Of a stretch of 64,000 bases of DNA, positions 8,811 to 26,103 are shown one piece after another. The DNA is taken from NCBI GenBank assembly GCA_937886715.1, contig CAKZZD010000020.1:20591-84590 (forward strand). The letters are read 5' to 3'. Below the pieces are notes generated by a model. The model did not search any database, was not told the DNA's origin, and saw nothing but the letters and a program-made list of their open reading frames with translations. This stretch comes from an uncultured Bacteroidales bacterium. Lineage in GTDB: Bacteria; Bacteroidota; Bacteroidia; Bacteroidales; P3. Both the position numbers and the translations under genes were made by a program. Numbering within the stretch: the first letter of the stretch is position 1; every line of letters starts with the position of its first letter.

Positions 8811-9332
8811 ATGCACAAAATGCCCAACGACGAGACACCCCACTGGTACGCCATGCGCGTCTACCACAACCGCAGCAAAATGCTGACGGAAACGCTCTCG
8901 GACGACGGCATTGAGTATTTCGACCCGTCGGAGGCCATCGCCTCGCTGCTGTTCGTGCATTGCGACGAGCACTACATCGCCGATTTGGGGTCTCGCTATT
9001 TCGACCGCGTGTGGATCTACCGCCGCACCGGCTCGCGGGTGCCTGCAGTAGTGCCCGACCGCGAGATGGAGGTGTTCCGCTTCGTGGTGACGGCAGGCAA
9101 GCAGGGGCTGACATTCTTGGGCGACGACCGGCCGGAGTATCACCAGGGCGACCGCGTAGTGGTCACCGACGGCCCGTTCAAAGGTGCCGAAGGGCACATC
9201 AAACGCATCAAACGCGACCGACGGCTGATTGTCAGCATCGACGGCGTGGTGGCAGTGGCCACCACATATATCCATCCCAAATTCTTGAAGAAAGTCGACA
9301 TGCCTGAGCCCACTGGGCGCTTCCGGATATGA
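8811..9332 (+). CDS. upxY: UpxY-family (NusG-like) transcription antiterminator
   Basis: It has an NGN-like N-terminus (HWYAMRVYHNRSK) and a KOW motif (GDRVVVTDGPFKGAEGHIKRI). It is the first gene of a long co-directional polysaccharide locus. Confidence 0.85.
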   Translation: MHKMPNDETPHWYAMRVYHNRSKMLTETLSDDGIEYFDPSEAIASLLFVHCDEHYIADLGSRYFDRVWIYRRTGSRVPAVVPDREMEVFRFVVTAGKQGLTFLGDDRPEYHQGDRVVVTDGPFKGAEGHIKRIKRDRRLIVSIDGVVAVATTYIHPKFLKKVDMPEPTGRFRI

Positions 9333-10495
9333 AGACACCGCTGTTCCACCTGCAATACGAGCTCGACCAGCCCTACACCGAAAGGGGCACCGAGTCGGGT
9401 GCGAAACTGTTCACCGACGAGATCGACGACCCCGTCGTGCGCCGTTGTCTGGAGACCACCGGCAAGATGGGGCAAAAGGAGCTGGCCCGGTGGCTGCAGC
9501 GCGAACACGAATCGATCAAGGACAAGGTCTACGTCACGCCGCTGACCACCTACACGCCCGAAGCACTCGACTACAGGCTCGAAGGCATCAGCCCCGCACT
9601 GGTCTACATCTCCCGTCCGCTGCACACAATCATGATGCTCGACGAGTTCCTCCACGAGGCCAACGTGCACCTTGAAACCGGTGCATGGATCAGCTGCCAC
9701 TCGATGACGTCGGTGCTGAAGCGCAAGCTGCTGATGAAGCGCTACCCCTGGGGCATACGCCACGTGGCGGCCGCGGCGCACTATATGTGGCACCGGGTGT
9801 GCCCGAAGCTGGGACTGACACGCAAGCTGTATTTCTCCATCACCGGCGGCAAAAACCGCACCTTCAACCGGGTGGAGATCCTGGGACGGCTCTATCGTGC
9901 CGGCTTCGAGGTGAAGGACGAGCAGTTCCGCGAGGGCGAGTTTTTTGTCATCGCGCAAAAGGTAAAGCCGCCCGTCGAGGACAAGGCACCCACGGGTTCG
10001 CCCATCATCCACCTCCGCCGCGTGGGACTGAACGGCAAGCCCATCGTGGTCCACAAGTTCCGCACCATGTACACCTACTCGGAGTACATCCAGTCGTACA
10101 TCTACCGTTATCAGAACCTGGACAACGGCGGCAAGTTCAAGAACGACTACCGGGTGAACTTCTGGGGCAAGATCCTGCGCAAAAGCTGGCTCGACGAGTT
10201 GCCGATGGTGTGGAACATGATCCAGGGCGACATGAAACTGGTGGGCGTGCGCCCGTTGAGCCAGCAGTATTTCAGCCTCTACACGCCCGAGATGCAGGAG
10301 CTCCGCACCCGCACCAAGCCCGGCCTGCTCCCGCCGTTCTATTACGACGCCGTCACGCCGGAAAGCATCGACGATGTGCAAGCCTCTGAACGCCGCTACC
10401 TGGAAGCCTACCTCAAAGCGCCGTTCCGCACCGACTGGCGCTACTTCTGGGGCATCGTGGGCAACATCGTCTTCCGTAACAAGCGCTCGAAGTAA
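9329..10495 (+). CDS. Initiating sugar transferase (Bac_transf polyprenyl-phosphate glycosyl-1-phosphate transferase core) with an atypical soluble-looking N-terminal domain
   Basis: The C-terminal half has IIHLRRVGLNGKPIVVHKFRTM, WLDELPMVWNMIQGDMKLVGVRP and KPGLL. There is an ATGA overlap with upxY. Confidence 0.75.
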   Translation: MKTPLFHLQYELDQPYTERGTESGAKLFTDEIDDPVVRRCLETTGKMGQKELARWLQREHESIKDKVYVTPLTTYTPEALDYRLEGISPALVYISRPLHTIMMLDEFLHEANVHLETGAWISCHSMTSVLKRKLLMKRYPWGIRHVAAAAHYMWHRVCPKLGLTRKLYFSITGGKNRTFNRVEILGRLYRAGFEVKDEQFREGEFFVIAQKVKPPVEDKAPTGSPIIHLRRVGLNGKPIVVHKFRTMYTYSEYIQSYIYRYQNLDNGGKFKNDYRVNFWGKILRKSWLDELPMVWNMIQGDMKLVGVRPLSQQYFSLYTPEMQELRTRTKPGLLPPFYYDAVTPESIDDVQASERRYLEAYLKAPFRTDWRYFWGIVGNIVFRNKRSK

Positions 10496-10634: not shown

Positions 10635-11546
10635 ATGAAGCAAGACAATAAAAACTTCGACTCTTCGGCTCCCCAATCTTTCGACCATTCGACATCCAAC
10701 GAGGGCTGGACTACTGTCATCAAGCCGAAGGACAAGTTGCTGTCGGTCGACTTCGGCGAACTGTGGCGCTACCGCGACCTCTGCTCGCTGTTTGTCAGGC
10801 GCAATATCACCACGCAGTTCAAGCAGACGGTGCTTGGCCCGTTGTGGTATGTCCTGCAGCCGATGATCACGGTGGTGATGTATATGGTGGTGTTCGGCAA
10901 CATTGCCAAAATACCCACCGACGGACTTCCTCAGCCGCTGTTCTACCTGAGCGGAATCTGCCTCTGGCAGTATTTCAGCGACTGTCTGAACAAGACCTCC
11001 TCAACGTTTGTGTCGAACGCCAGCATCTTCGGCAAAGTCTACTTCCCACGACTCATCGTGCCCATCTCCAACGTCATCTCCAACCTGCTCCGCTTTGGCA
11101 TCCAGTTCGCCCTTTTTCTGGTGGTGTACGCCGTCTATCAGATTTTCATCATCCCCGGACAGATCCACACCAATTGGTATGCCCTGATGCTGCCCGTGTT
11201 GGTGGCCATGCTGGCCGGCTTGGCGCTGGGTTTCGGAGTGCTGTTTTCCAGCCTGACCACAAAGTATCGCGACCTGCAGCTGCTGCTGGGCTACTTCGTC
11301 AGCCTGTGGATGTATGCCACACCGGTGATCTATCCCTTGAGCACCATCCACAACAACACGCTGCGCTTCATCATGTCGCTCAACCCCCTGACAGGCATCG
11401 TCGAAGCCTTCAAGTATGGCTTCCTCGGCGAGGGTGTCTTCAGCTGGGGTCTGCTGGGCTACAGCTTCGCCTTCATGGTAGTGCTGCTGGCCATCGGCGT
11501 GGTGCTCTTCAACCGGGTGCAACGCACCTTCATGGACACCGTCTGA
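10635..11546 (+). CDS. wzm: ABC-2 type polysaccharide export permease (Wzm/TagG-like)
   Basis: The sequence ELWRYRDLCSLFVRRNITTQFKQTVLGPLWYVLQPM is followed by six hydrophobic segments. Confidence 0.85.
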   Translation: MKQDNKNFDSSAPQSFDHSTSNEGWTTVIKPKDKLLSVDFGELWRYRDLCSLFVRRNITTQFKQTVLGPLWYVLQPMITVVMYMVVFGNIAKIPTDGLPQPLFYLSGICLWQYFSDCLNKTSSTFVSNASIFGKVYFPRLIVPISNVISNLLRFGIQFALFLVVYAVYQIFIIPGQIHTNWYALMLPVLVAMLAGLALGFGVLFSSLTTKYRDLQLLLGYFVSLWMYATPVIYPLSTIHNNTLRFIMSLNPLTGIVEAFKYGFLGEGVFSWGLLGYSFAFMVVLLAIGVVLFNRVQRTFMDTV

Positions 11547-11548
11547 TC

Positions 11549-12586
11549 ATGGCAACCATACAACAGCTGGCATACGGACTGCTGGTGCCCGCCGTGAACG
11601 GTGAGACGCCGCAAGGCGCGCTCTTCGACAACCTGGACACCGGCCAATGGGCGCAGCTGTTCCGCCTGATGCGGCAGAACAATGTGGTGGCGCTGACAGC
11701 CGCATCGGTGGCTCAGCTGGGCGAGCAGGTGCCTCGCAGCATCAAAATGCCGTGGTTGATGGAACGCGAAAAAGCGGCCAGCCGCTACCGCATGCAGGCC
11801 GACGTCGAGCACGACATCAAAGCGTTGATGCAGGAGCACGGCATCAAATGCATGACCCTTAAAGGGACACACCTGTCCCGCTACTACCCCACACCTGAGT
11901 GTCGCGAGTTCGGCGACCTGGACCTCTACTTCTTCGACCGGCAGGCCGATGCCGACCGTCTGATGGCCGACGAGCACGGCGTCGCAATCAGCAACGACGC
12001 CCACCACCACACGAAGTATGTCTACCGCGGCGTCACGGTGGAAAGCCACTACAATTTCGTCAACGTCCACACCCCCCGCAGCAACCGCCGCTACGAACAG
12101 CTGCTCAAAAGCCTGGCACCTTCGCCCACCTTCGAGCTGCTGTTCATGCTGCGCCACGTGGCGGTACACTTTGCGGCCAGCCGCATCACGCTGCGCGACC
12201 TGACCGATTGGCACCTCGCCACCCGGCAATTGGAGGGTTCCGTCGACTGGGACACGGTACGTAAGGCCGCCAAAGACTTCGGCATGGCGCCTTTCGCCGA
12301 TGCGCTGACCTCCATCGTGAGCCGTCGTTTCAACCATGAAATACCTCTCCGCTTTGCCCCCGAAAACGACATCGCCGAAAAGGTGGAGCACGATATGCTC
12401 TTTGGCAGTCCGCAGAGCGAGGAATACCCCGCCAATGGCTGGGGTAGGCTATCCTGGAAGCTGCGCCGCTACCGTGCCAACCGATGGAAACAGCGTCTCG
12501 TCTTCAACGACTCGCCGCTGAGCCTGCTCCTCACCAGCCTCGGCTCCCACTCTCGCAACCCGCATAGCATCCTGCATAAGATATAA
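11549..12586 (+). CDS. Uncharacterised nucleotidyltransferase-family protein (NTP_transf_5-like)
   Basis: Frame of ORF 10763..12586. The N-terminal part of that ORF overlaps wzm out of frame. The sensible start is [12 protein letters not shown] at 11549. The GDLDLYF motif is present. Confidence 0.55.
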
Positions 12587-13666: not shown

Positions 13667-14139
13667 CACACAGAAACCACAGAAATCACAGAAAAACCGT
13701 CACCCCCACGACACCAAATGAAATAACATACGAAATTAGGGGTGCGATATACGATGTGTATAAAGAACTTGGGCCTGGACTATTGGAAAGCGTATACGAG
13801 GAGGCATTGTGTTTCGAACTAGAACAACGCGGATTATTTATTGAACGACAAAAACAGGTGCCTGTCATATACAAGGGCTGCAGACTAAAAACAGATTTAC
13901 GACTCGATATTCTTGTTGAGGACAAAGTTATCGTCGAGTTGAAATCTGTAGAGGAAATGAAAAAAGTGTTCGCCAAACAACTTTTGACATACCTTCGCTT
14001 GATGGACAAAAGAATTGGGATTCTGGTGAATTTCAATACTGACGACATCTTGACATCAATCACTCGAATAGCCAATTGATTATTGCTCAACAAAATGATG
14101 CGTCAGCATAATTTCTGTGATTTCCGTGATTTCTGTGTG
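13667..14139. mobile_element. 473-bp inverted-repeat-bounded cassette carrying a GxxExxY gene, filling almost the whole gmd-fcl gap (13665..14180)
   Basis: The left arm is cacacagaaaccacagaaatcacagaaa (13667-13694). The right arm is tttctgtgatttccgtgatttctgtgtg (14112-14139), whose reverse complement matches 26/28. Each arm consists of three CACAGAAAY 9-mers. Confidence 0.5.
13756..14079 (+). CDS. GxxExxY family protein (PD-(D/E)XK-like); conserved N-terminus lacks a canonical start
   Basis: It contains LGPGLLESVYEEAL, DILVEDKVIVELKSV and GILVNFN. In-frame upstream codons encode NEITYEIRGAIYD, which is the usual family N-terminus, but no ATG/GTG/TTG precedes the GTG at 13756. Confidence 0.7.
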   Translation: MYKELGPGLLESVYEEALCFELEQRGLFIERQKQVPVIYKGCRLKTDLRLDILVEDKVIVELKSVEEMKKVFAKQLLTYLRLMDKRIGILVNFNTDDILTSITRIAN

Positions 14140-15227: not shown

Positions 15228-16499
15228 ATGCCAACTGCCATAGAATTCAACAATATCAGCAAAATATACCGGCTCGGACTGGTGTCCACCGGCACGCTGA
15301 GCCATGATCTGAAACGCTGGTGGACGATGAATATCCGCCATCAGGAAGACCCCTACCTCACCATCGGCGAGACCAACGACCGCAGCACCAAAGGCGACAG
15401 CGACTACGTGTGGGCGCTGAAAGACATCGACTTCAAGGTAGAACAGGGCGACGTGGTGGGCATCATCGGCAAAAACGGCGCCGGCAAAAGCACCCTGCTG
15501 AAAATCCTCTCTAGGGTCACCGCCCCCACCACCGGCACCATCCGCGCCCGCGGCCGCATCGGCTCGCTGCTCGAAGTGGGCACAGGTTTCCACCCCGAGA
15601 TGACAGGGCGCGAGAATATCTACATGAATGGTGCCATCCTCGGCATGACCAAACAGGAAATCACGCGCAAATTGGACGAGATTGTCGACTTCAGCGGCTG
15701 CGAACGCTATATCGACACCCCTGTGAAGCGCTACAGCAGCGGCATGATGGTGCGCCTCGGCTTCGCCGTCGCCGCCCACCTCGACCCCGAGATCCTCGTC
15801 GTCGACGAAGTCCTCGCCGTCGGCGATGCCGAATTCCAGAAGAAAGCCATCGGCAAGATGCAAGATGTCAGCCGCGGTGAAGGCCGCACGGTGCTGTTCG
15901 TGAGTCACAATATGGCTAGCGTCCAGACACTCTGCGCCAGAGGAATTTTATTGGCAAATGGTACTATAAAGAAAATAGGCACTATTGGTGAAGTAATATC
16001 AGAATATCTATCTACTAACGCATATATTTCATACGATGATATTATGGATAGGTTTAAAGGGAAACAGCTCCCACAAGCCTATTTTACCAAAATTGATTTT
16101 ACTGATGTAGAGGGAAACGTGTGCAAGGCCGCAATATCAGGAGAAACTCTGAATATTGTAATTAGATACATTTCCAATCTCAGACGGCCATTTCACATAA
16201 ATATAGGCATTTACAATCAGGCAGGAGAAAAAATATTACATTTAAGTTCAGAGTATTGTTTGGCAGAAATAGACTTCCAACAACAAGAAGGTACATTTGT
16301 ATTTACCTACAAAAAACTACCTCTACCCAAGGGAGAATACATTATTAACTTCACACTATGGTCTGGATACGAACGAATAGACTGGGTTAGAGATTGCGTA
16401 AAACTAAATGTGACTGAAGGGGACTTTTATGGCAATGGTAAATTACCTGATTCTAAAGAAAATAAAGTTTTAACAGAATATCTATGTCAACAAGTATAG
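15228..16499 (+). CDS. wzt: Polysaccharide ABC transporter ATP-binding protein with C-terminal glycan-binding beta-sandwich (Wzt-type)
   Basis: The nucleotide-binding domain has GIIGKNGAGKSTLLK, YSSGMMVRLGFA and ILVVDEVLAVGD. An extra tail of about 170 aa (ETLNIVIRY...GEYIINFTLWS) is typical of the Wzt C-terminal domain. Confidence 0.85.
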   Translation: MPTAIEFNNISKIYRLGLVSTGTLSHDLKRWWTMNIRHQEDPYLTIGETNDRSTKGDSDYVWALKDIDFKVEQGDVVGIIGKNGAGKSTLLKILSRVTAPTTGTIRARGRIGSLLEVGTGFHPEMTGRENIYMNGAILGMTKQEITRKLDEIVDFSGCERYIDTPVKRYSSGMMVRLGFAVAAHLDPEILVVDEVLAVGDAEFQKKAIGKMQDVSRGEGRTVLFVSHNMASVQTLCARGILLANGTIKKIGTIGEVISEYLSTNAYISYDDIMDRFKGKQLPQAYFTKIDFTDVEGNVCKAAISGETLNIVIRYISNLRRPFHINIGIYNQAGEKILHLSSEYCLAEIDFQQQEGTFVFTYKKLPLPKGEYIINFTLWSGYERIDWVRDCVKLNVTEGDFYGNGKLPDSKENKVLTEYLCQQV

Positions 16500-18919
16500 C
16501 TAAAGGGAAAACAGTTTACGACGTGGTACATGAAAACCTTTGTATTTCATGTGGCGCGTGTAAACCAATTTGCCCTCAAAGTGCCATACAATACAAATTT
16601 GAAAGAGGACTATTTCTTCCCACTATCAACAAAGCTAAATGCATTGCTTGTGAGAGGTGCTTGAAAATATGCCCAAGCCATCAGATTGATGTGGGTGCCT
16701 TATATGGGAATACCGATTTTCTTAACAATGACCAAAAATGTTTTACAGCTTTTTCTAATGACAGAATAATACGACGCTCAGGAACTAGCGGAGGCGTAGT
16801 ATCCACCATTATACTCCGATTGCTTGAAAACAAGGTTTACGAGAAAGCCTACGTTTTAAAGTATGAATCTTTTTCAGACAAACTACAGGCCAAGCTTACT
16901 CCAGTCACGACGAAAGGTGAAATATTGGGCGCAGCCAAATCCAAATACATACCTGCATCTGTCGAAAATGTTATTAACGACATTAGAAACAAACGCATTG
17001 GGAAAGCCATTATTGTTGCAACACCCTGCCAAACAATACCCATTCTCCATGCGATGAAACAATACTCCATATCAGAAGAAGACATATTGATCATTGGCTT
17101 ATTCTGCGACAAAACACTCAACTACAACGTCTATTCATTTTACAGGAAATTGTATGGCAAATACTCGGAGCTTCATTTTAGAGATAAAGAAGCTAATGGT
17201 TGGCCTAGCGACAGTCTACTGGTTTATGGTAACAAAAAGAGAAGAATAGTAAGTAGAGATATCCGAATATCATTAAAGTCATATTTTCAACCGAATCGGT
17301 GCCGTTACTGTTTTGACAAACTCAACCAACTCGCAGATATCAGTTGCGGGGATTGCTATATAGAAAGCGAATGTTCTGCAGAAGGATCCTCAAGTATCAT
17401 AGTTCGTAGCAAAAAGGGCCAAGATGCATTGGATTGTTGTAAACAGGACTTAACATTAAAACTTTCTGATATTTCAGACATAAAAGAATCGCAAAGAACC
17501 GATCTGAAATTAACATCAGTTATACGGAACACCCTTAATGGAGTATTCTATAATTTTCCGGCACTCAGTTATAGTGACAGCGATAAGATTCATTGTTACG
17601 AAAAAAAAGATTTGAAAGATATGGAACTTGGAGGCAAACTTTTTTCTCATGGTGGTTATTCCAAAATCAAAAAAAATATCATTGTGAAAAAATCACATAA
17701 TAACCTCTATTTCAAAAGGATAAAGAAAGTAATCAACTTCTTCAAGCACGCCATTTATAATCCAAGCCGAAAATACAACATACTGATTGACCATATTGGT
17801 TTTAACAATAGAGGTGCTCAACTCATGCTGATGTCTATAGTCGAGCAGATCAAACTTTATATTCCAAAAGCACAGATTGTCGTACCAGAATATGTATACT
17901 ACGAAGGAATCTCATATTGTCATCAACACCATATAGTCCCTCTTCAATATGGCAAAAGTCGAATCAAAACGATTCGAAATAAATATGCTTACCAAAATAT
18001 ACTTAACAAACACACTTATGTTGTCCCTTCCGACATCAATTTGATTCTGGACGCAGGCGGATTTCAGTTCGGAGATACTTGGGTACATGGTGAAAGCGAT
18101 ATTCACCATTGGACTAATTACTATAAACAGTTCACCAAGCCCGAACTGAAGGTTTATTTCCTTCCTCAGGCTTATGGGCCCTTTGACAACAACATTTCAA
18201 AAAAAATCATCTCAATCGCTCACAATGTAGCAACTCGTATGTACTCAAGGGACAATGTGTCCTATGTTCATTTAATGAAAACCTTCCCTGACAGTCAGAA
18301 AATTTTTAAAGCTCCTGATTTTACCATTCTCTTGAAGCCCACAGAATCACCTGTTGTGATACTGAGTCCTCAAAAGTATATTATAATCATCGCCAACAGT
18401 CGAATGATTGACCATTCAGACAGTTCGATTTCCTCTTCATACATTCCATTTTTAGTCCAGATTACCCAAATGCTCATCAATAATGGCGAGAATGTTCTGT
18501 TCCTAAACCATGAAGGTATTGATGATGAATTATTGTTACAAGAAGTCGACAGACAATTGTCTGTCGAAATCCCTATTATCACCCGGATTTCTGCCATAGA
18601 CACAAAAAGCATTATTGGGAAAGCCAAACTGCTAATTAGCTCAAGATTTCATGGGGTTGTAAGCGGCCTTACTCAAAATGTCCCAACATTATGCGCATCA
18701 TGGAGTCATAAATATATTGAGTTACTCAAAGAACATCAATGCGCCGATAGTTTATTGGACACCACTAACATCGAAAGCAGTAAGGTTATAATCAACGATG
18801 CGTTATTGAATCCCCAAAAATACACAAGCAAATTTGGGTGCAATCAACAAATCTCAACAAGTGCAGTTCAGATGTGGAAAGATATTTTTAAACAAGTATG
18901 TAACACACTTGATTATTAA
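16484..18919 (+). CDS. Fusion protein: 2x[4Fe-4S] ferredoxin + FrhB-like (F420 hydrogenase/dehydrogenase beta) domain fused to a polysaccharide pyruvyl transferase domain
   Basis: The N-terminus has CISCGACKPICP and CIACERCLKICP, then SGGVVSTI...ATPCQ...GLFC. The C-terminal half has NRGAQLM, LDAGGFQFGD and LLISSRFHGVVSGL (pyruvyl-transferase-like). It is one 811-aa ORF in a markedly AT-rich region. Confidence 0.7.
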   Translation: MSTSIAKGKTVYDVVHENLCISCGACKPICPQSAIQYKFERGLFLPTINKAKCIACERCLKICPSHQIDVGALYGNTDFLNNDQKCFTAFSNDRIIRRSGTSGGVVSTIILRLLENKVYEKAYVLKYESFSDKLQAKLTPVTTKGEILGAAKSKYIPASVENVINDIRNKRIGKAIIVATPCQTIPILHAMKQYSISEEDILIIGLFCDKTLNYNVYSFYRKLYGKYSELHFRDKEANGWPSDSLLVYGNKKRRIVSRDIRISLKSYFQPNRCRYCFDKLNQLADISCGDCYIESECSAEGSSSIIVRSKKGQDALDCCKQDLTLKLSDISDIKESQRTDLKLTSVIRNTLNGVFYNFPALSYSDSDKIHCYEKKDLKDMELGGKLFSHGGYSKIKKNIIVKKSHNNLYFKRIKKVINFFKHAIYNPSRKYNILIDHIGFNNRGAQLMLMSIVEQIKLYIPKAQIVVPEYVYYEGISYCHQHHIVPLQYGKSRIKTIRNKYAYQNILNKHTYVVPSDINLILDAGGFQFGDTWVHGESDIHHWTNYYKQFTKPELKVYFLPQAYGPFDNNISKKIISIAHNVATRMYSRDNVSYVHLMKTFPDSQKIFKAPDFTILLKPTESPVVILSPQKYIIIIANSRMIDHSDSSISSSYIPFLVQITQMLINNGENVLFLNHEGIDDELLLQEVDRQLSVEIPIITRISAIDTKSIIGKAKLLISSRFHGVVSGLTQNVPTLCASWSHKYIELLKEHQCADSLLDTTNIESSKVIINDALLNPQKYTSKFGCNQQISTSAVQMWKDIFKQVCNTLDY

Positions 18920-18973
18920 CAATCACCGTTGGTAAGCGAAAACATGTAATTCAGATACAACTTAGAATTGATC

Positions 18974-19855
18974 ATGGGAAACAGACCTCTCTTCTCATTA
19001 CTAATAGCCAACTACAACAACGGCTGCTATCTACAGCAGGCCATTGATAGCGTGATGGCTCAGACCTACGACAATTGGGAGATTATCTTAGTGGACGACG
19101 GTTCAACAGACAATTCTGCCGAAATATACAAAAAATACGAATCCGATCCCCGTTTTCATATCTACTTCAACGATAAGAATCATGGCTGCGGATACACCAA
19201 ACGCCGCTGCGCAGAACTGGCCAATGGAGAAATATGCGGATTCCTTGACCCAGACGACGAGTTATTGCCAGATGCGCTAATGCTTCATATCAACGAACAC
19301 CTGAAAAACAGAGACTGCGCAATTGTGTATTCCCGTTGCAACTATTGCAATGACGCAGGTGAAATCATCGGAATTAGCCAGCTCCCTCCCTTTAAGGAAG
19401 GCGAAACTTTTTTTGACTATCGCTGGTATGGTACCATGAACTTTGCTTCATACAAGAAAAAAAAGTATGATAAGACTGAGGGCATCTCTGCCACACTAAA
19501 AGCTGGTGTTGACCAAGACCTTTATTTTAAGGTTGAAGAGACTGGGGAGATTGTCGCTCTAGACAAAATCACTTATCGCTATTACAAAAGACATACAGAT
19601 ATGGCAATCACATCAGTCGCCAATCAAGCTGATCTTTGGTATTGGAATCTTGTAGCAAGAAGGGAAACCTGCAAACGTAGGAACATAGACGAACACAAGA
19701 TTCTCCGCGATGATTTCGAATTTATACACAACTTTCTGATCAAAGAAGAATGCGTTAAAACAGAGATGAGAATCAGAAATTCACTTCCTTACAGAATTGG
19801 TAAGATTTTTTTAACTCCTTTTTATCTCATCCGTAATTTCTTCCAACAAAAATAA
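18974..19855 (+). CDS. Glycosyltransferase family 2
   Basis: It contains FSLLIANYNNGCYLQQAIDSVMAQTYDNWEIILVDDGSTDNS and DPDD. The track start at 18968 is TTG; the ATG is at 18974. Confidence 0.85.
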   Translation: MGNRPLFSLLIANYNNGCYLQQAIDSVMAQTYDNWEIILVDDGSTDNSAEIYKKYESDPRFHIYFNDKNHGCGYTKRRCAELANGEICGFLDPDDELLPDALMLHINEHLKNRDCAIVYSRCNYCNDAGEIIGISQLPPFKEGETFFDYRWYGTMNFASYKKKKYDKTEGISATLKAGVDQDLYFKVEETGEIVALDKITYRYYKRHTDMAITSVANQADLWYWNLVARRETCKRRNIDEHKILRDDFEFIHNFLIKEECVKTEMRIRNSLPYRIGKIFLTPFYLIRNFFQQK

Positions 19856-19863
19856 TCAAGACT

Positions 19864-20961
19864 ATGGGGAAACCAATAGTATTAGCATACTACCTCCCAC
19901 AGTTCCACCCCATACCGGAAAATGATCTTTGGTGGGGCAAAGGATTTACCGAATGGACCAACGTCGGCAAGGCCATGCCTCTCTTTCAAGGTCACTACCA
20001 GCCAAAGGTGCCAGCCGACTTAGGCTACTACGACCTCCGTGTTCCAGAGACACGCATCGAACAAGCCCGCTTGGCAGCACAGTATGGCATCCACGGCTTC
20101 TGCTACTGGCATTACTGGTTCGGCAACAACAAGCAGCTTTTGGAACGCCCTTTCAATGAAGTTGTTTCCTCCGGCGAACCCGATTTCCCGTTTTGCTTGG
20201 CTTGGGCAAATGAGTCTTGGAAAGGATTTGACCATGGACTGAGAAACCGCAAAGTTCTCATCGAACAAACCTACGGTGGAGAAAAAGACTACACAGAACA
20301 TTTCTATTCCGTCCTGCCGGCGTTCCTTGACAAACGGTATATCAAACGGAACGGATGCCCTCTTTTCACAATATACTTCCCTCAAAACATCCCCGACTGC
20401 AAAGCATTTGTCGACCTTTGGCAAACCCTTGCCCAAAAGAATGGTCTGCCCGGAATATTCTTCATCGGGCTCTCCCTACACACCGACGAACAAACTCTTG
20501 CCTCCATGCAACAGCTTGGAATGAATGCAATCTCAACCATCCGGCTGGAAGACTTCTACGGCAATCTTAAACACAAGGTATCGCTGGGACAAAAGATACA
20601 CAATAAACTGACAGGAAACGTCTTGCCTCCAAGAGCACTCGAGTACAAAGACACCATGAAGTACTTCTACAACTCCTTGGATGCCACCCCGAGCATCTAT
20701 CCTACCATTATCTCCGGATGGGACCATAGTCCTCGCACAGGACGTGAAGGCCTCATCATGTACAACTACACCCCTGATTTGCTGAAAGAACACGCAACCC
20801 AGATACTGAGCCTCGTTCAGAACAGAAACGACGAGGATTCCTTTGTCTTTCTGAAATCTTGGAATGAATGGGCCGAGGGCAACTACATGGAACCCGACTT
20901 GAAATACGGGCATCAATTCCTACAGGCTCTGAAAGAAGCAATAGATAGTTTTAGCAAATGA
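19864..20961 (+). CDS. WbsX-like (GH99-like domain) polysaccharide biosynthesis protein
   Basis: It contains AYYLPQFHPIPENDLWWGKGFTEWTNV, FCYWHYWF and SWNEWAEGNYMEPD. Confidence 0.75.
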   Translation: MGKPIVLAYYLPQFHPIPENDLWWGKGFTEWTNVGKAMPLFQGHYQPKVPADLGYYDLRVPETRIEQARLAAQYGIHGFCYWHYWFGNNKQLLERPFNEVVSSGEPDFPFCLAWANESWKGFDHGLRNRKVLIEQTYGGEKDYTEHFYSVLPAFLDKRYIKRNGCPLFTIYFPQNIPDCKAFVDLWQTLAQKNGLPGIFFIGLSLHTDEQTLASMQQLGMNAISTIRLEDFYGNLKHKVSLGQKIHNKLTGNVLPPRALEYKDTMKYFYNSLDATPSIYPTIISGWDHSPRTGREGLIMYNYTPDLLKEHATQILSLVQNRNDEDSFVFLKSWNEWAEGNYMEPDLKYGHQFLQALKEAIDSFSK

Positions 20962-21838: not shown

Positions 21839-22281
21839 CTCAATCAGATTTTAAAAGAATCATGGATAAGGACTTGATATATACTATTATTGGATGCGTA
21901 CTGAAAGTTCATTCAAAATTAGGTCCGGGCCTTTTAGAGTCTGTTTACCAAAAAGCATTGATGATTGAATTGGACAATGAATGCCTTTCGGCAGAAGAGG
22001 AAGTGCCATTAGAAATAATGTATGATGGAAATAACCTCGGATTAGGTTTTAGAATGGACATCTTGGTTGAAGGCTAGATTATCCTTGAACTAAAATCCGT
22101 ATCAGCTTTAGAAAAAGTACACTTCAAGCAGTTACAAACATACCTGAAACTATCGAACAAACCTTTGGGATACCTAATAAATTTCAACGTGGACAAAATG
22201 GTTATCGGCTCAAGCATCCATCGCATCACAAACATCAACTATCAAGAATAACTCTTTTATAATCTTTTACAATCTGATTGA
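21839..22281. mobile_element. 443-bp inverted-repeat-bounded cassette carrying a GxxExxY pseudogene
   Basis: The left arm is ctcaatcagattttaaaagaatc (21839-21861). The right arm is tcttttataatcttttacaatctgattga (22253-22281), whose reverse complement tcaatcagattgtaaaagatt matches 19/21. Confidence 0.5.
21862..22251 (+). pseudogene. GxxExxY family gene interrupted by an in-frame TAG
   Basis: The sequence MDKDLIYTIIGCVLKVHSKLGPGLLESVYQKAL...DILVEG is followed by TAG at 22075-22077. The same frame then continues IILELKSVSALEKVHFKQLQTYLKLSNKPLGYLINFN... to TAA at 22249-22251. Confidence 0.75.
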
Positions 22282-24202: not shown

Positions 24203-25066
24203 ATGCAAAAACGTCAACTGGTTTTCCATCTTGGCCACTCAGCAGGATTCTACTCCGAATTCAACAATATGGTGCTGGCCATCCTGTATTGCCATAAGCA
24301 TAACATCGATTTCAAACTCTACTCTGCCGATGCCAATTTCCGAGTCAAGAATGGCTGGCAAGACTACTTCCTTCCTTTCTGCAACGAATCCCACAACCCA
24401 GTCCACCACTACATCAACCACCGTTTCGAAGCGCCCAAGGGCGGCAAACGCAAGCTGATCTGCAGTCTCTACAGGTTCATCTTCCCCAACACCCTACTCA
24501 CCTCTGACCTATGGAACAGTTTCCGGCATATCGACCATGAAGAGCTCACCACCTCGGAAGTCCAACAATACTCTTCCGACATCATAAACAAAATCTATCG
24601 TTTCAATCCGTCCACGCAACAAAAGGTGGACAACCTGATCACATCCCTCGGCATCAATACCCCGTATGTCGGTTTTCACATCCGCGGAGGAGACAAAAAC
24701 ACCGAACACGACCTGATCTCCATCGACCGCTACATCTCTCGCGCCGAAGCTTCGACATCCATCCGACAAGGGTTCGTGTTCACCGACGACTACCATTTCA
24801 TTGAGTCACTCCGCAAGAATTATCCCGAATGGCGTTTCCTCACCCTCACTCCTCCAGACGACCACGGCTACTTCTTCTCCGACTTCTTAAAACTTTCCTC
24901 CCAGGAGCGGGACCAGCGACAAATCAACATGTTTGCCTCTATCGAACTCTTGAGCCGCGCGGACCTCGCTTTCTGCACCTACAGTTCAAACGTAGGCATG
25001 TTCCTCGGAATGCGAATGGGATCCCGAGCCATCGGCATCGACATGGACAACTGGATGATATGGTGA
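24203..25066 (+). CDS. Putative fucosyltransferase-superfamily glycosyltransferase (HxRxxD motif type)
   Basis: VGFHIRGGDK resembles the conserved motif of GT11/GT23/GT65-type fucosyltransferases. The gene lies next to a GT10 gene and in a locus with gmd/fcl. Confidence 0.4.
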   Translation: MQKRQLVFHLGHSAGFYSEFNNMVLAILYCHKHNIDFKLYSADANFRVKNGWQDYFLPFCNESHNPVHHYINHRFEAPKGGKRKLICSLYRFIFPNTLLTSDLWNSFRHIDHEELTTSEVQQYSSDIINKIYRFNPSTQQKVDNLITSLGINTPYVGFHIRGGDKNTEHDLISIDRYISRAEASTSIRQGFVFTDDYHFIESLRKNYPEWRFLTLTPPDDHGYFFSDFLKLSSQERDQRQINMFASIELLSRADLAFCTYSSNVGMFLGMRMGSRAIGIDMDNWMIW

Positions 25067-25119
25067 TCCATCCCACGAATTAACGAAATGCTCGTCACCA
25101 TCATAAGACAAGACATCTC

Positions 25120-26103
25120 ATGACACTAAACATAAAACGCTACCGCCGAGCCCTCGTCACCGACGACCGTCGCATCGTCTACCACAATTTCTGGGACGGG
25201 CAGGCTGCCGAAGTGATATGGTTTACCCAGTTTCTTCGCGCCCACCGTCTGCTGGACGGCCATCGCACTCGCCGGTTCATCTTCTTCTCCACATTGGGCA
25301 ACGGACAGGTGCTGTCAACCGACCGTCTGCTCCACCCCTTCAACAAACAACGCAAGCGAATCTTCTTTACGGGCGAAAATGTCCACCATCCTGCCTTCTG
25401 CCAATACGCCGACAACATGCTGTCGCAACCGGACATCGACCTCTCTTTGGGATTCGACTACATCGACGACGATCGCTACCTTCGCTTCCCCATCTGGATT
25501 CTGGAAATGTTTCCCCCACAATCTACCGTCGAAGACATCAAAAACATCTGCCAACAGCTCAGCCACCAACACGTCGACGATTCGCGCAACCGGTTCTGTG
25601 CCATCGTCTCCGGCACCAGCACCATGCTCGGTACCAAGAGCCTCGAGATGCGCACCGACATGGTGAACCGGCTCAACGCCATAGCCCGCGTCGACTGTGC
25701 CGGCCGCCTGTTGAACAACACCGACGAACTAAAAACCAAGTTCAACGACAACAAAGCCGAGTTCCTCAAGCAGTACCGTTTCTACATCTGCCCAGAGAAC
25801 GCCTCTGTCAAAGGCTATGTCACCGAGAAAGTCTTCCACTGCATCGGCTCCGGCTGCATCCCCATCTACTGGGGATCCGACAACAACCCCGAACCCGACG
25901 TGCTTAACCACGATGCCATCCTCTTCTGGAACCCCGATGGCGACAACAATGCCTTGCTACAACAGATTGCAGAGCTGCAAAACAACCCCACCCGCTACCG
26001 CGAATTCTTCGAGCAGCCCCGTCTGCAACCCGACGCCTGGCAGGTAGTGGCCGCTTACTTCGACAGACTCGAACAACACCTCAACAAACTATTCCAATCG
26101 TGA
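25120..26103 (+). CDS. GT10-family alpha-1,3/4-fucosyltransferase-like
   Basis: FYICPENASVKGYVTEKVFHC matches the GT10 signature (F..ENS...YVTEK). The upstream FTGEN and CAIVS motifs are also present. Confidence 0.7.
   Translation: MTLNIKRYRRALVTDDRRIVYHNFWDGQAAEVIWFTQFLRAHRLLDGHRTRRFIFFSTLGNGQVLSTDRLLHPFNKQRKRIFFTGENVHHPAFCQYADNMLSQPDIDLSLGFDYIDDDRYLRFPIWILEMFPPQSTVEDIKNICQQLSHQHVDDSRNRFCAIVSGTSTMLGTKSLEMRTDMVNRLNAIARVDCAGRLLNNTDELKTKFNDNKAEFLKQYRFYICPENASVKGYVTEKVFHCIGSGCIPIYWGSDNNPEPDVLNHDAILFWNPDGDNNALLQQIAELQNNPTRYREFFEQPRLQPDAWQVVAAYFDRLEQHLNKLFQS

Follow-up and report, generated by a model that had tools for sequence, protein, structure and literature searches.

Bacterial polysaccharides have been known for about fifty years to carry lactyl (1-carboxyethyl) ethers, and in the literature searched we found no assignment of their enzymology beyond muramic acid. 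Ordinary pyruvyl transferases (PvTs) pass through an enolpyruvyl ether intermediate that is closed into a ketal. The nitroreductase-fold domain of FbiB reduces an enolpyruvyl to a lactyl group in F420 synthesis, and BciB, of the FrhB family, is a vinyl reductase acting on a C=C bond. Every PF04230 enzyme characterised biochemically forms ketals and uses lipid-linked or polymeric acceptors; the published motifs of the family are NxGD, RxxxS/T, a His and a PEP-binding Arg, and one member, WbbZ, is able to cap and terminate an O-polysaccharide (PMC10629545). Export of the Klebsiella pneumoniae O1 polysaccharide proceeds without the pyruvate cap (PMC11231755).

Several enterobacterial loci contain a PvT-annotated gene paired with a reductase-annotated gene, namely those of E. 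coli O124 (wfeP), S. boydii 17 and Klebsiella K22/K37 and K66, and their glycans either carry a lactyl ether or are free of pyruvyl groups. In E. coli O164, wfeP is frameshifted and Glc replaces the glucolactilic acid of O124 (PMC7685785). For glucolactilic acid in S. boydii 17, the title of a paper states that two genes have been confirmed, and the K22 capsule contains 4-O-[(S)-1-carboxyethyl]-GlcA, according to a title cited in PMC3857182. Among the 31 typed Klebsiella capsules with a PvT gene, with gene families taken from the published annotation, only K8, K22, K37 and K66 are pyruvyl-free; a nitroreductase gene adjoins the PvT gene wclZ in K22 and K37 alone, and a 'coenzyme F420 hydrogenase' gene adjoins the PvT gene wcqF in K66 alone (Pan 2015, Tables S2/S3). 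Possession of a reductase partner was associated with absence of the pyruvyl group (Fisher one-sided p = 0.0009; 0.007 with K22 and K37 collapsed). The K66 capsule presumably contains lactyl groups. These tables support a reduced product. K8 has no pyruvate and yet is without a reductase, so the Klebsiella table may partly reflect incomplete structures. All these enterobacterial pairs are supported by genetics or correlation rather than by enzymology.

Here, we analysed a window of 64,000 nucleotides from an uncultured Bacteroidales bacterium (contig CAKZZD010000020.1 of assembly GCA_937886715.1), in which both functions are encoded by one gene (Table 1). The likeness to the enterobacterial pairs is one of annotation; in those, the two genes are separate and belong to Wzx/Wzy loci, whereas the fusion is a single gene in a Wzm/Wzt locus.

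Table 1. Features of the fusion gene and its surroundings (positions in the window)
Feature	Position	Strand	Remarks
wzm, ABC-2 permease partner of wzt	10635..11546	+	62-66% identical to the Wzm proteins of four homologous loci (tblastn)
wzt, NBD (residues 64-195) and Wzt_C CBD (residues 283-397)	15228..16499	+	16-nt overlap with fusion start
Imported block of low GC (Wzt CBD, fusion, GT2)	15900..19860	+	GC shift
Fusion gene, 811 aa	16484..18919	+	2x[4Fe-4S], FrhB-like flavoprotein, helical segment and pyruvyl-transferase domain
Ferredoxin-type domain, residues 14-66	16523..16681	+	Pfam Fer4 families; two CxxCxxCxxxCP motifs
FrhB_FdhB_N (86-164) and FrhB_FdhB_C (174-332)	16739..17479	+	Pfam; module for flavin and a third [4Fe-4S] cluster
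Lys-rich helical inter-domain segment, residues 336-430	17489..17773	+	four predicted helices
PS_pyruv_trans domain, residues 442-742	17807..18709	+	Pfam E 1.4e-22; GT-B fold
GT2 glycosyltransferase	18968..19855	+	within low-GC block, imported with fusion

Domain content and intactness of the fusion

A preliminary description of this DNA had proposed a single polypeptide with two CxxCxxCxxxCP motifs, an F420-hydrogenase-beta-like domain and a C-terminal pyruvyl-transferase domain, and the Pfam search recovered each part. The two motifs lie at C20/23/26/30-P31 and C53/56/59/63-P64. FrhB_FdhB_N scores 47.4 bits (cut-off 22) and FrhB_FdhB_C 78.7 bits (cut-off 23.3), and PS_pyruv_trans scores 81.4 bits (cut-off 25.3) with the model covered over its whole length (1-280 of 280), the motif SRFHGVVSGL falling at residues 720-729. 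The reading frame has a single stop codon, the terminal one. Since the assembly is metagenome-derived and the GC content changes abruptly within wzt, we considered that an error of sequencing or assembly might have merged two genes, or that a chimeric contig had been joined within wzt. Positions 16000-19900 are spanned, with 13 substitutions and no indels, by a contig of another goat-gut metagenome run; the frame remains open after its variants are put in, and further gut runs span the junction piecewise without gaps. Moreover, some 85 fused relatives exist, loci L040 and L041, from independent assemblies, likewise pass from high-GC gmd, fcl and wzt NBD to low-GC enzymes, and a chimera would require two matching junctions. 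An artefact therefore has a negligible chance, a lost stop codon is excluded, and we confirmed that an iron-sulfur flavin reductase and a sugar pyruvyl transferase are truly joined in one polypeptide.

The N-terminal half has the fold, flavin motif and [4Fe-4S] ligands of the FrhB/FdhB/FpoF family, HCAR included, and its 2x[4Fe-4S] domain resembles the N-terminal domain of FpoF and Fsr. The GGVV flavin motif and Cys182/208/273/276 are in register with the solved FrhB-family chains 8riu_B, 9r51_B and 7npa_A, and Foldseek gave a TM of 0.70 to 8riu_B/8rja_E and of 0.68-0.72 across FrhB-family chains, with matches also to FrhB, Fsr and the ferredoxin-dependent HCAR (5dqr). In 59 full-length relatives, which align end to end at 28-49% identity, all 12 cluster Cys (eight of them in the ferredoxin-type domain) and S102/G103 of the flavin motif are invariant, indicating that the redox module is under catalytic constraint. 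Unlike the described members of the family, the protein carries a transferase and sits in the glycan locus of a gut bacterium. It falls far under every NCBIfam equivalog cut-off, and an F420-reactive FrhB/FpoF orthologue was rejected on these scores (87 vs 269 bits for PRK09325, 68 vs 331 for frhB and 60 vs 475 for FpoF).

Between the two halves, a Lys-rich linker had been described at about residues 380-420. The richness in lysine holds, over residues ~336-430, but the loose tether does not: AlphaFold2 places helices at residues 339-352, 368-384, 391-405 and 408-424, with pLDDT means of 10-residue blocks mostly of 74-95 and dips to 59 (361-370) and 68 (421-430), so that the segment is predicted to be structured. 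It is the least conserved part of the fusion (25% mean identity over seven loci). At L041, where the two functions are split, the FrhB match stops at residue 337 and the PvT match begins at 409, and most of the segment aligns with neither gene.

The PvT-domain model (pLDDT 94.7, pTM 0.92) finds GT-B structures in Foldseek, the best matches being UDP-GlcNAc 2-epimerases and GT-B glycosyltransferases, the same fold background as reported for WbbZ (PMC10629545). The solved PvTs 6X1L and 5AX7 are absent from its top 50 matches, and HMMER detected no sequence similarity to solved PF04230 members. N442xG444, R589xxxS593, H676 and R721/H723, assigned by pattern and not by alignment with a solved member, are invariant or nearly so in the 59 relatives; the Asp position of NxGD is Ala in the fusion and varies in the family (A in 34 and D in 20 of the 59). 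The C-terminal half has its family and GT-B fold in common with the ketal PvTs WbbZ of K. pneumoniae O1b, Pvg1p, CsaB and WcfO, and carries candidate NxG, RxxxS/T, His and PEP-binding Arg motifs. The ketal PvTs neither have nor need a redox domain and yield a cyclic ketal, whereas the fusion includes such a domain.

Fused and split arrangements

The fusion is neither unique nor rare in databases: full-length fused relatives form ~85 clusters at 90% identity, and long fused proteins account for 21 among the best 150 PvT-domain representatives. The same genome encodes a fusion in the reverse order (PvT-Fer4-FrhB, 777 aa) as well as an overlapping FrhB/PvT split pair. The two fusion orders arose independently, because each belongs to a different sub-lineage. 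The two functions had been said to be encoded by separate neighbouring genes in other polysaccharide loci, which our survey bears out: adjacent split pairs occur in six other genomes of a 200-genome sample of the phylum, where FrhB-like genes elsewhere are all unfused, and L041 has an exact split counterpart in the slot of the fusion, after wzt. In that sample, FrhB-like genes without an adjoining PvT form a separate, lower-scoring subfamily. A nitroreductase-PvT fusion and an FrhB-hexapeptide acyltransferase fusion (P0093) exist too.

Genomic setting

New here is the placement of the gene: wzm-wzt(Wzt_C) directly precedes the fusion in seven of the seven relatives with at least 40% identity; divergent relatives (29-36% identity) do not adjoin a Wzt with Wzt_C. 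In the window, wzm is masked by an over-long ORF (10763-12586). Equally new is the co-import of the CBD with the fusion and the GT2. GC content drops from 0.60 to 0.36 at ~15900, which is the NBD/CBD boundary of Wzt, and rises again at ~19860; for this reason we conclude that the three came in together. GC3 is 0.37-0.46 in the block and 0.73-0.87 in native neighbours, and clusters at 90% identity hold two sequences for the fusion, one for the hybrid Wzt and 585 for the native gmd.

Compared with homologous loci, the NBD of Wzt is 82-86% identical and the CBD 39-48%. Fusion-linked CBDs share a mean identity of 42% with each other. In L040 and L041, whose enzyme sets differ, the CBD has 14-24% identity to the fusion-linked ones, while the NBDs are equally similar (76-87%). 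PvT identity is 41-48% in all loci compared, and FrhB and CBD diverge in step. L041 encodes a split FrhB and PvT yet has a different type of CBD, so the CBD does not simply track the presence of both functions; its type follows the enzyme set downstream, by reductase sub-lineage rather than by PvT sub-lineage. The gene 3' of the fusion differs between loci, being a GT2 (L010), a GT4 (L012, L036), FdtA (L015) or an AAA protein (L009). A GT2 46% identical to that of the window stands directly after the fusion in L010, and L040 encodes one that is 43% identical. In L040 and L014, a PvT stands alongside an aldo/keto reductase and an FrhB-like protein that is joined to an adenylating domain of the citrate-lyase-ligase type; judged from gene content, the chemistry of these sister loci may involve more than one reduction. 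The locus of the fusion yielded no candidate methyltransferase, kinase or Kdo transferase.

Proposed reaction and alternatives

We propose, at roughly even odds (about 0.5), that the fusion is a cytoplasmic two-step tailoring enzyme of a Wzm/Wzt (ABC-transporter-dependent) glycan pathway, for which we infer donor, acceptor and product. The PF04230 domain would move the three-carbon unit of PEP to a sugar hydroxyl, giving an enolpyruvyl ether. Ferredoxin or flavodoxin is the probable low-potential donor of the electrons, which would then pass through the two [4Fe-4S] clusters and the third cluster to the flavin; the flavin would reduce the C=C bond to yield a 1-carboxyethyl (lactyl) ether. The proposed logic is that of MurA/MurB, in which a sugar hydroxyl receives the enolpyruvyl group of PEP and a flavin enzyme then reduces this group to a lactyl ether. 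MurA adopts the EPSP-synthase fold, and MurB, which uses NADPH and FAD, has a different one; the fusion is unrelated to both, with no corresponding Pfam or NCBIfam match, and differs in its probable donor, ferredoxin acting through three Fe-S clusters, and in its probable acceptor, a glycan.

The enzyme might instead be an ordinary ketal PvT, its Fe-S/flavin module serving as a redox sensor or gate or acting at some other pathway step. Residues matching the PEP-site motifs by pattern are present, and both the uniform ketal chemistry of characterised PF04230 enzymes and the terminal ketal made by WbbZ fit such a role (PMC10629545). We regard it as unlikely, given that known ketal transferases need no redox partner, that Klebsiella loci with a reductive partner are recorded without a pyruvyl group, and that the pairing recurs, in two independent fusions, split pairs and the nitroreductase fusion. 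This recurrence, the Klebsiella association and the invariance of the cluster Cys and flavin-motif residues support joint action in a redox step on the PEP-derived substituent, which the preliminary description had suggested as an example. It had also called the role of the FrhB-like partner unexplained, which no longer holds entirely in view of the glucolactilic acid genetics of E. coli and Shigella; the literature searched yielded no biochemical study.

Other versions of a reductive route concern its acceptor or its end product. The substrate of both reactions could be a nucleotide sugar, as UDP-GlcNAc is for MurA/MurB, and not the lipid-linked chain, the co-imported GT2 then transferring the lactyl sugar and being the true terminator; wfeP is indeed described as needed for 'synthesis of UDP-D-GlcpLA' in a review on E. 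coli (PMC7685785), and a GT2 recurs after the fusion in L010. The acceptors of characterised PF04230 enzymes (PMC10629545) and the variety of genes found 3' of the fusion in other loci make this rather improbable. Still less probable is another reduced or elaborated PEP-derived group, for example a lactyl group amidated later at its carboxylate or a product of more than one reduction, as might be read from the adenylating-domain fusion and the aldo/keto reductase of the sister loci and from the acyltransferase fusion: neither such a ligase nor an aldo/keto reductase occurs in the fusion or its locus, and K22, the sole linked structure confirmed (by the cited title), is a plain lactyl ether.

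If the product is a lactyl ether, its position in the glycan can be considered. Synteny, co-import and the tracking of the CBD suggest a chain-terminating cap read by the exporter: the lactyl-modified residue would stand at the non-reducing end, stop polymerisation and be the ligand of the co-inherited Wzt CBD, with only capped chains exported. We advance this tentatively, at somewhat under even chances, because all seven close relatives follow wzm-wzt(Wzt_C), the breakpoint lies at the NBD/CBD boundary, CBD and enzyme set co-vary, no methyltransferase-, kinase- or Kdo-type terminator candidate turned up in the locus and WbbZ provides a precedent. The fusion would cap an ABC-transporter-dependent glycan, as WbbZ caps an ABC-transporter-made O-polysaccharide; the transporter of WbbZ is without a CBD and its cap is dispensable for export, whereas the Wzt encoded next to the fusion has a CBD. 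The kinase-methyltransferase WbdD (E. coli O9a) and the beta-Kdo transferases (K. pneumoniae O12/O4) resemble the fusion in that a tailoring enzyme with two catalytic modules is encoded beside a Wzt with a CBD, and the fusion and its CBD were apparently inherited as one cassette. The chemistry differs; the terminal position and export role of the lactyl cap are putative, and the AlphaFold2 model predicts no long coiled-coil ruler like that of known terminators, the helices between the domains being four of 14-17 residues. The cap is weakened by this last point, by the dispensability of the O1 cap, by the divergent relatives without a Wzt_C neighbour and by the CBD of L041. Because CBD type follows the reductase sub-lineage, the CBD may discriminate a feature that the reductase sets, e.g. 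lactyl stereochemistry (R or S). A broader and more doubtful possibility is that FrhB-PvT fusions beside Wzt represent a new termination chemistry for ABC-transporter-dependent glycans, in which a lactyl-ether cap produced by a single polypeptide would be matched by a dedicated CBD, both enzyme and CBD being exchanged between strains as a cassette.

Significance

As one soluble polypeptide with both proposed activities, the fusion offers a direct test of lactyl-ether formation. If the cap is real, it would add a new terminator chemistry to the model that couples chain termination to export, and would mean that a gut bacterium swaps the reading head of its exporter jointly with the capping enzyme, which would bear on how the many 'F420 hydrogenase beta' annotations are read where capsule loci belong to organisms without known F420 use, and on glycan diversity and phage or antibody recognition in ruminant-gut bacteria.

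Domain structure and integrity of the fusion gene

The 811-amino-acid reading frame reported in the preliminary description was confirmed, and the sequence motifs named with it were located: the two CxxCxxCxxxCP motifs at C20–P31 and C53–P64, and SRFHGVVSGL at residues 720–729. The Pfam search called for there returned Fer4-type domains (residues 14–66), FrhB_FdhB_N (86–164) and FrhB_FdhB_C (174–332), all above curated cut-offs, and the assignment of the C-terminal half as a polysaccharide pyruvyl transferase (PvT) was borne out by a full-length PS_pyruv_trans match (residues 442–742), again above the curated cut-off. NCBIfam models detected the same two halves, but the scores (87 bits vs 269; 68 vs 331) do not come near the equivalog cut-off of any true F420 enzyme. 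As to a lost stop codon, the frame stays open and has a single terminal stop after applying the variants of an independent contig. This contig, from a different goat-gut metagenome run, spans 16000–19900 with 13 substitutions and no indels relative to the window, and the inter-domain junction is covered, piecewise and gapless, in three further gut runs. A search for relatives retrieved 93 proteins; some 85 share the architecture of the fusion, at 28–49% identity, and 59 of these align with it end to end. Because the independent contig, the junction coverage and the existence of relatives of the same architecture agree, we conclude that the fused frame is not an assembly accident. Metagenome runs containing the sequence come from goat, bovine and other guts; the RNA entries among them match DNA entries in sample and size and may duplicate those data. 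The nearest named relative of the fusion is from Fibrobacter sp. UWEL. A scan of genome contigs with the fusion protein gave a single weak match, in a Saccharicrinis MAG, restricted to the PvT half (28% identity).

An AlphaFold2 model based on the 59-relative alignment had a mean pLDDT of 92.5 and a pTM of 0.62, the latter probably reflecting two bodies of uncertain mutual placement. The Lys-rich segment described between the halves is present, but instead of a linker the model predicts four helices; this segment is the least conserved part of the protein (25% mean identity).

The N-terminal half superposed in Foldseek on FrhB-family chains with TM-scores of 0.68–0.72, including Fsr and HCAR, a plant enzyme that depends on ferredoxin. 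HMMER alignments with solved members of the family placed the GGVV flavin motif and Cys182, Cys208, Cys273 and Cys276 in register, and these residues, together with the eight ferredoxin cysteines, are invariant across the 59 relatives. By sequence comparison, we class the fusion as a member of the FrhB/FdhB superfamily and not as an orthologue of any F420 enzyme. One protein from the relatives search (P0093, 604 amino acids) joins an FrhB-like module to a hexapeptide acyltransferase, without a PvT; glycan-tailoring transferases of more than one type therefore serve as partners of the redox module.

The C-terminal half, modelled separately, adopts a predicted GT-B fold (pLDDT 94.7, pTM 0.92). 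In Foldseek it lies closest to UDP-GlcNAc 2-epimerases and GT-B transferases, the best 50 being generic GT-B proteins only, and an equally unspecific background was described for the solved pyruvyl transferase WbbZ (Kelly et al., PMC10629545). The motifs reported in that study (NxGD, RxxxS/T, a His and a PEP-binding Arg) have pattern-matched candidates in N442xG444, R589xxxS593, H676 and R721/H723. The Asp of NxGD is an Ala in the window's fusion, and the position varies within the family. Its loss was considered as a marker of reductase-linked PvTs and rejected, position 445 being occupied by Ala (34), Asp (20), Gly (4) or Ser (1) in the 59 fused relatives. No solved PvT was found among PDB sequences, whether the query was the PvT domain or a 50-sequence profile. 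The Pfam assignment places the fusion in family PF04230.

Organization of the locus

The window carries an ABC-transporter-type glycan locus.

Features of the window locus and of another polysaccharide locus from its source genome
Feature	Position	Strand	Remarks
NusG-like gene	8811–9332		
Initiating transferase	9329–10495		
wzm	10635–11546		
gmd and fcl			between wzm and wzt in locus order
wzt with Wzt_C	15228–16499		
Fusion	16484–18919	+	directly after wzt
GT2 gene	22278		
Two fucosyltransferase-type genes	24203–26103		FUT8-like catalytic region; GT10
Further locus genes			many glycosyltransferases, a deacetylase, an MBOAT
Second polysaccharide locus, Wzy/flippase type	L008:6260–13190		source genome of the window (G000; 2.5 Mb, 54 contigs), contig C2

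A 607-amino-acid ORF at 10763–12586 is over-extended: the true genes are wzm, in another frame, and one encoding an NTP_transf_5 protein, for which the Pfam match begins at residue 294 of the ORF. Small cassettes are located at 13667–14139, between gmd and fcl, and at 21839–22281, ahead of the GT2 gene at 22278. The two fucosyltransferase-type genes share the locus with gmd and fcl, and the glycan is probably fucose-rich.

The GC content is about 0.60 up to roughly position 15900, where it drops to 0.36 between the nucleotide-binding domain (NBD) and the carbohydrate-binding domain (CBD, Wzt_C) of Wzt, and it rises again at about 19860, at the end of the GT2 gene that follows the fusion (18968–19855); GC3 is 0.37–0.46 inside this block vs 0.73–0.87 outside. 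In the assembled contig, wzt is a hybrid gene in which a native high-GC NBD half (GC3 0.80) is in frame with a low-GC CBD (GC3 0.44). At 90% identity, the hybrid Wzt has no other member among 15 billion proteins; the fusion clusters with a single other protein, and the native gmd cluster counts 585 members.

Fused and separate arrangements

The second polysaccharide locus of this genome holds a 777-amino-acid fusion of reverse order (PvT-Fer4-FrhB) and a split pair, in which a PvT gene and an FrhB-like gene overlap by 19 nt. Its other genes encode a Wzy-like protein, a MurJ-type flippase, two ‘sugar-transfer associated’ ATP-grasp proteins and a GT4. The halves of the window's fusion each share 29% identity with a split pair from another genome (G011), vs 22% for the FrhB half and no match for the PvT half in the reverse fusion, from which we conclude that the two fusions arose separately.

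FrhB_C matches were present in 40 genomes of a 200-genome sample of the phylum. Outside the window's genome, all frames concerned measured 223–512 amino acids, so none of them is fused. Seven FrhB-like genes in this sample lie beside a PF04230 gene, unfused outside the window's genome, in agreement with the preliminary description, which has the two functions encoded by separate neighbours in other polysaccharide loci. Those away from PF04230 scored far lower on a profile of the FrhB half and had unrelated neighbours, and are therefore assigned to another subfamily. About 30 genomes of 2–3 Mb from one family (L016–L031) carry an FrhB-like gene of 410–475 amino acids without an adjacent PvT, for example by a short-chain dehydrogenase or ClpB; these may be chlorophyll-type reductases (BciB/HCAR-like). 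When the PvT domain was searched against 1.84 billion representatives without length bias, proteins longer than 700 amino acids made up 21 of the best 150 and 14 of the best 30, and the closest representative among the best 150 was a stand-alone PvT of 393 amino acids. Hence the fusion is common in its own clade and rare beyond it, and its architecture is already present in databases under generic names.

Proposed chemistry

The joint redox step suggested in the preliminary description gains support, a reductase being linked to a PvT in three arrangements and a nitroreductase–PvT fusion also occurring. Pyruvyl transferases that form ketals are not known to require a redox partner, and this repeated linkage suggests that the transferred group is reduced. 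Precedents are MurA/MurB, to neither of which the fusion is related, FbiB, whose nitroreductase-fold domain turns an enolpyruvyl into a lactyl group, and BciB, a vinyl reductase of the FrhB family. We propose that an enolpyruvyl ether would be made from PEP, that electrons would pass from ferredoxin through two [4Fe-4S] clusters and a further [4Fe-4S] cluster to the flavin, and that the C=C bond would be reduced to yield a lactyl (1-carboxyethyl) ether.

Published Klebsiella data agree with such a reduction. Among the capsules, a nitroreductase gene is confined to K22/K37, with the PvT gene wclZ, and a ‘coenzyme F420 hydrogenase’ gene to K66, with wcqF (Pan et al. 2015, PMC4616057). In Table S3 of that study, 31 of the typed capsules have a PvT gene, and only K8, K22, K37 and K66 among them lack a pyruvyl group. 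The reductase genes are associated with the missing pyruvyl group across these 31 capsules (one-sided Fisher p = 0.0009; 0.007 with K22 and K37 counted as one locus). The K66 capsule probably carries a lactyl sugar, as that of K22 does. For K22, 4-O-[(S)-1-carboxyethyl]-glucuronic acid is named in the title of a work cited in PMC3857182. Comparison of E. coli O164 with O124 revealed a frameshift in wfeP, glucose replacing glucolactilic acid in O164 (PMC7685785), and a 2006 paper on S. boydii 17, by its title, describes ‘two new genes’ for glucolactilic acid. These enterobacterial genes (wfeP and those of S. boydii 17 and K22/K37/K66) are likened to the fusion on the basis of published annotation. 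No biochemical demonstration of the proposed mechanism was found for any member in the literature searched.

Wzt carbohydrate-binding domain and downstream enzymes

The fusion gene stands immediately behind wzm-wzt(Wzt_C) in every one of the seven loci (that of the window and six others) whose fusions are related at 40% identity or more, and in most of them its start codon overlaps the preceding stop codon. Mean identity among them is 84% for the NBDs, 42% for the CBDs, 49% for the FrhB halves and 47% for the PvT halves. Two related loci, with other enzyme sets after wzt, served as controls. In L040 (1723–5482), the slot is occupied by a 957-amino-acid protein combining Fer4, FrhB_C and a citrate-lyase-ligase-type (adenylating) domain, followed by an aldo/keto reductase (AKR) and an unfused PvT; in L041, FrhB and PvT are encoded by split genes. 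Relative to the fused set, their NBDs are just as similar (76–87%), and likewise their PvTs (41–48%), whereas the FrhB parts are only 22–26% and the CBDs only 14–24% identical; the expectation that the split pair of L041 would come with the CBD type of the fused family was not borne out. The CBDs of L040 and L041 share 35% identity. By this comparison, the reading domain of the exporter changes with the downstream enzyme set, following the reductase more closely than the transferase.

In a further locus, L014 (3–2694), AKR and PvT are fused, and an upstream fragment is 80% identical to the tail of the L040 FrhB-ligase protein. That this fusion is a simple replacement of FrhB is weakened by the coexistence of AKR, FrhB-like protein and PvT in L040 and by the FrhB-ligase tail that precedes it in L014. 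The transferase, reductase and ligase set of L040/L014 resembles MurA/MurB/MurC; that the ligase might amidate the lactyl carboxylate, by analogy, is pure speculation.

Wzt CBDs of known systems bind the terminal cap, and only capped chains are exported (PMC11231755); WbbZ is itself a pyruvyl transferase that caps and terminates an O-polysaccharide (PMC10629545). Since, in addition, the CBD co-varies with the enzyme set, it is plausible that the fusion enzyme makes a terminal cap read by the CBD, although we rate this at somewhat less than even odds. The WbbZ transporter has no CBD (PMC11231755), unlike the window's Wzt, and four observations count against a capping role: no coiled-coil ruler is predicted in the AlphaFold2 model of the fusion, the gene 3′ of it is not conserved, the FrhB and PvT of L041 are paired with another CBD type, and divergent relatives occur outside Wzt_C-bearing wzm-wzt loci. 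A 36%-identical FrhB-PvT fusion at L038:5001–10496 belongs to a different export context: its neighbours are a rhamnan glycosyltransferase of RgpF type, an exporter in which ABC_membrane and ABC_tran are fused, and another PvT, which stands alone. On its domain content and gene neighbourhood, we describe the protein as a predicted pyruvyl transferase that carries its own reductase and, in this locus, belongs to a subfamily tied to Wzt.
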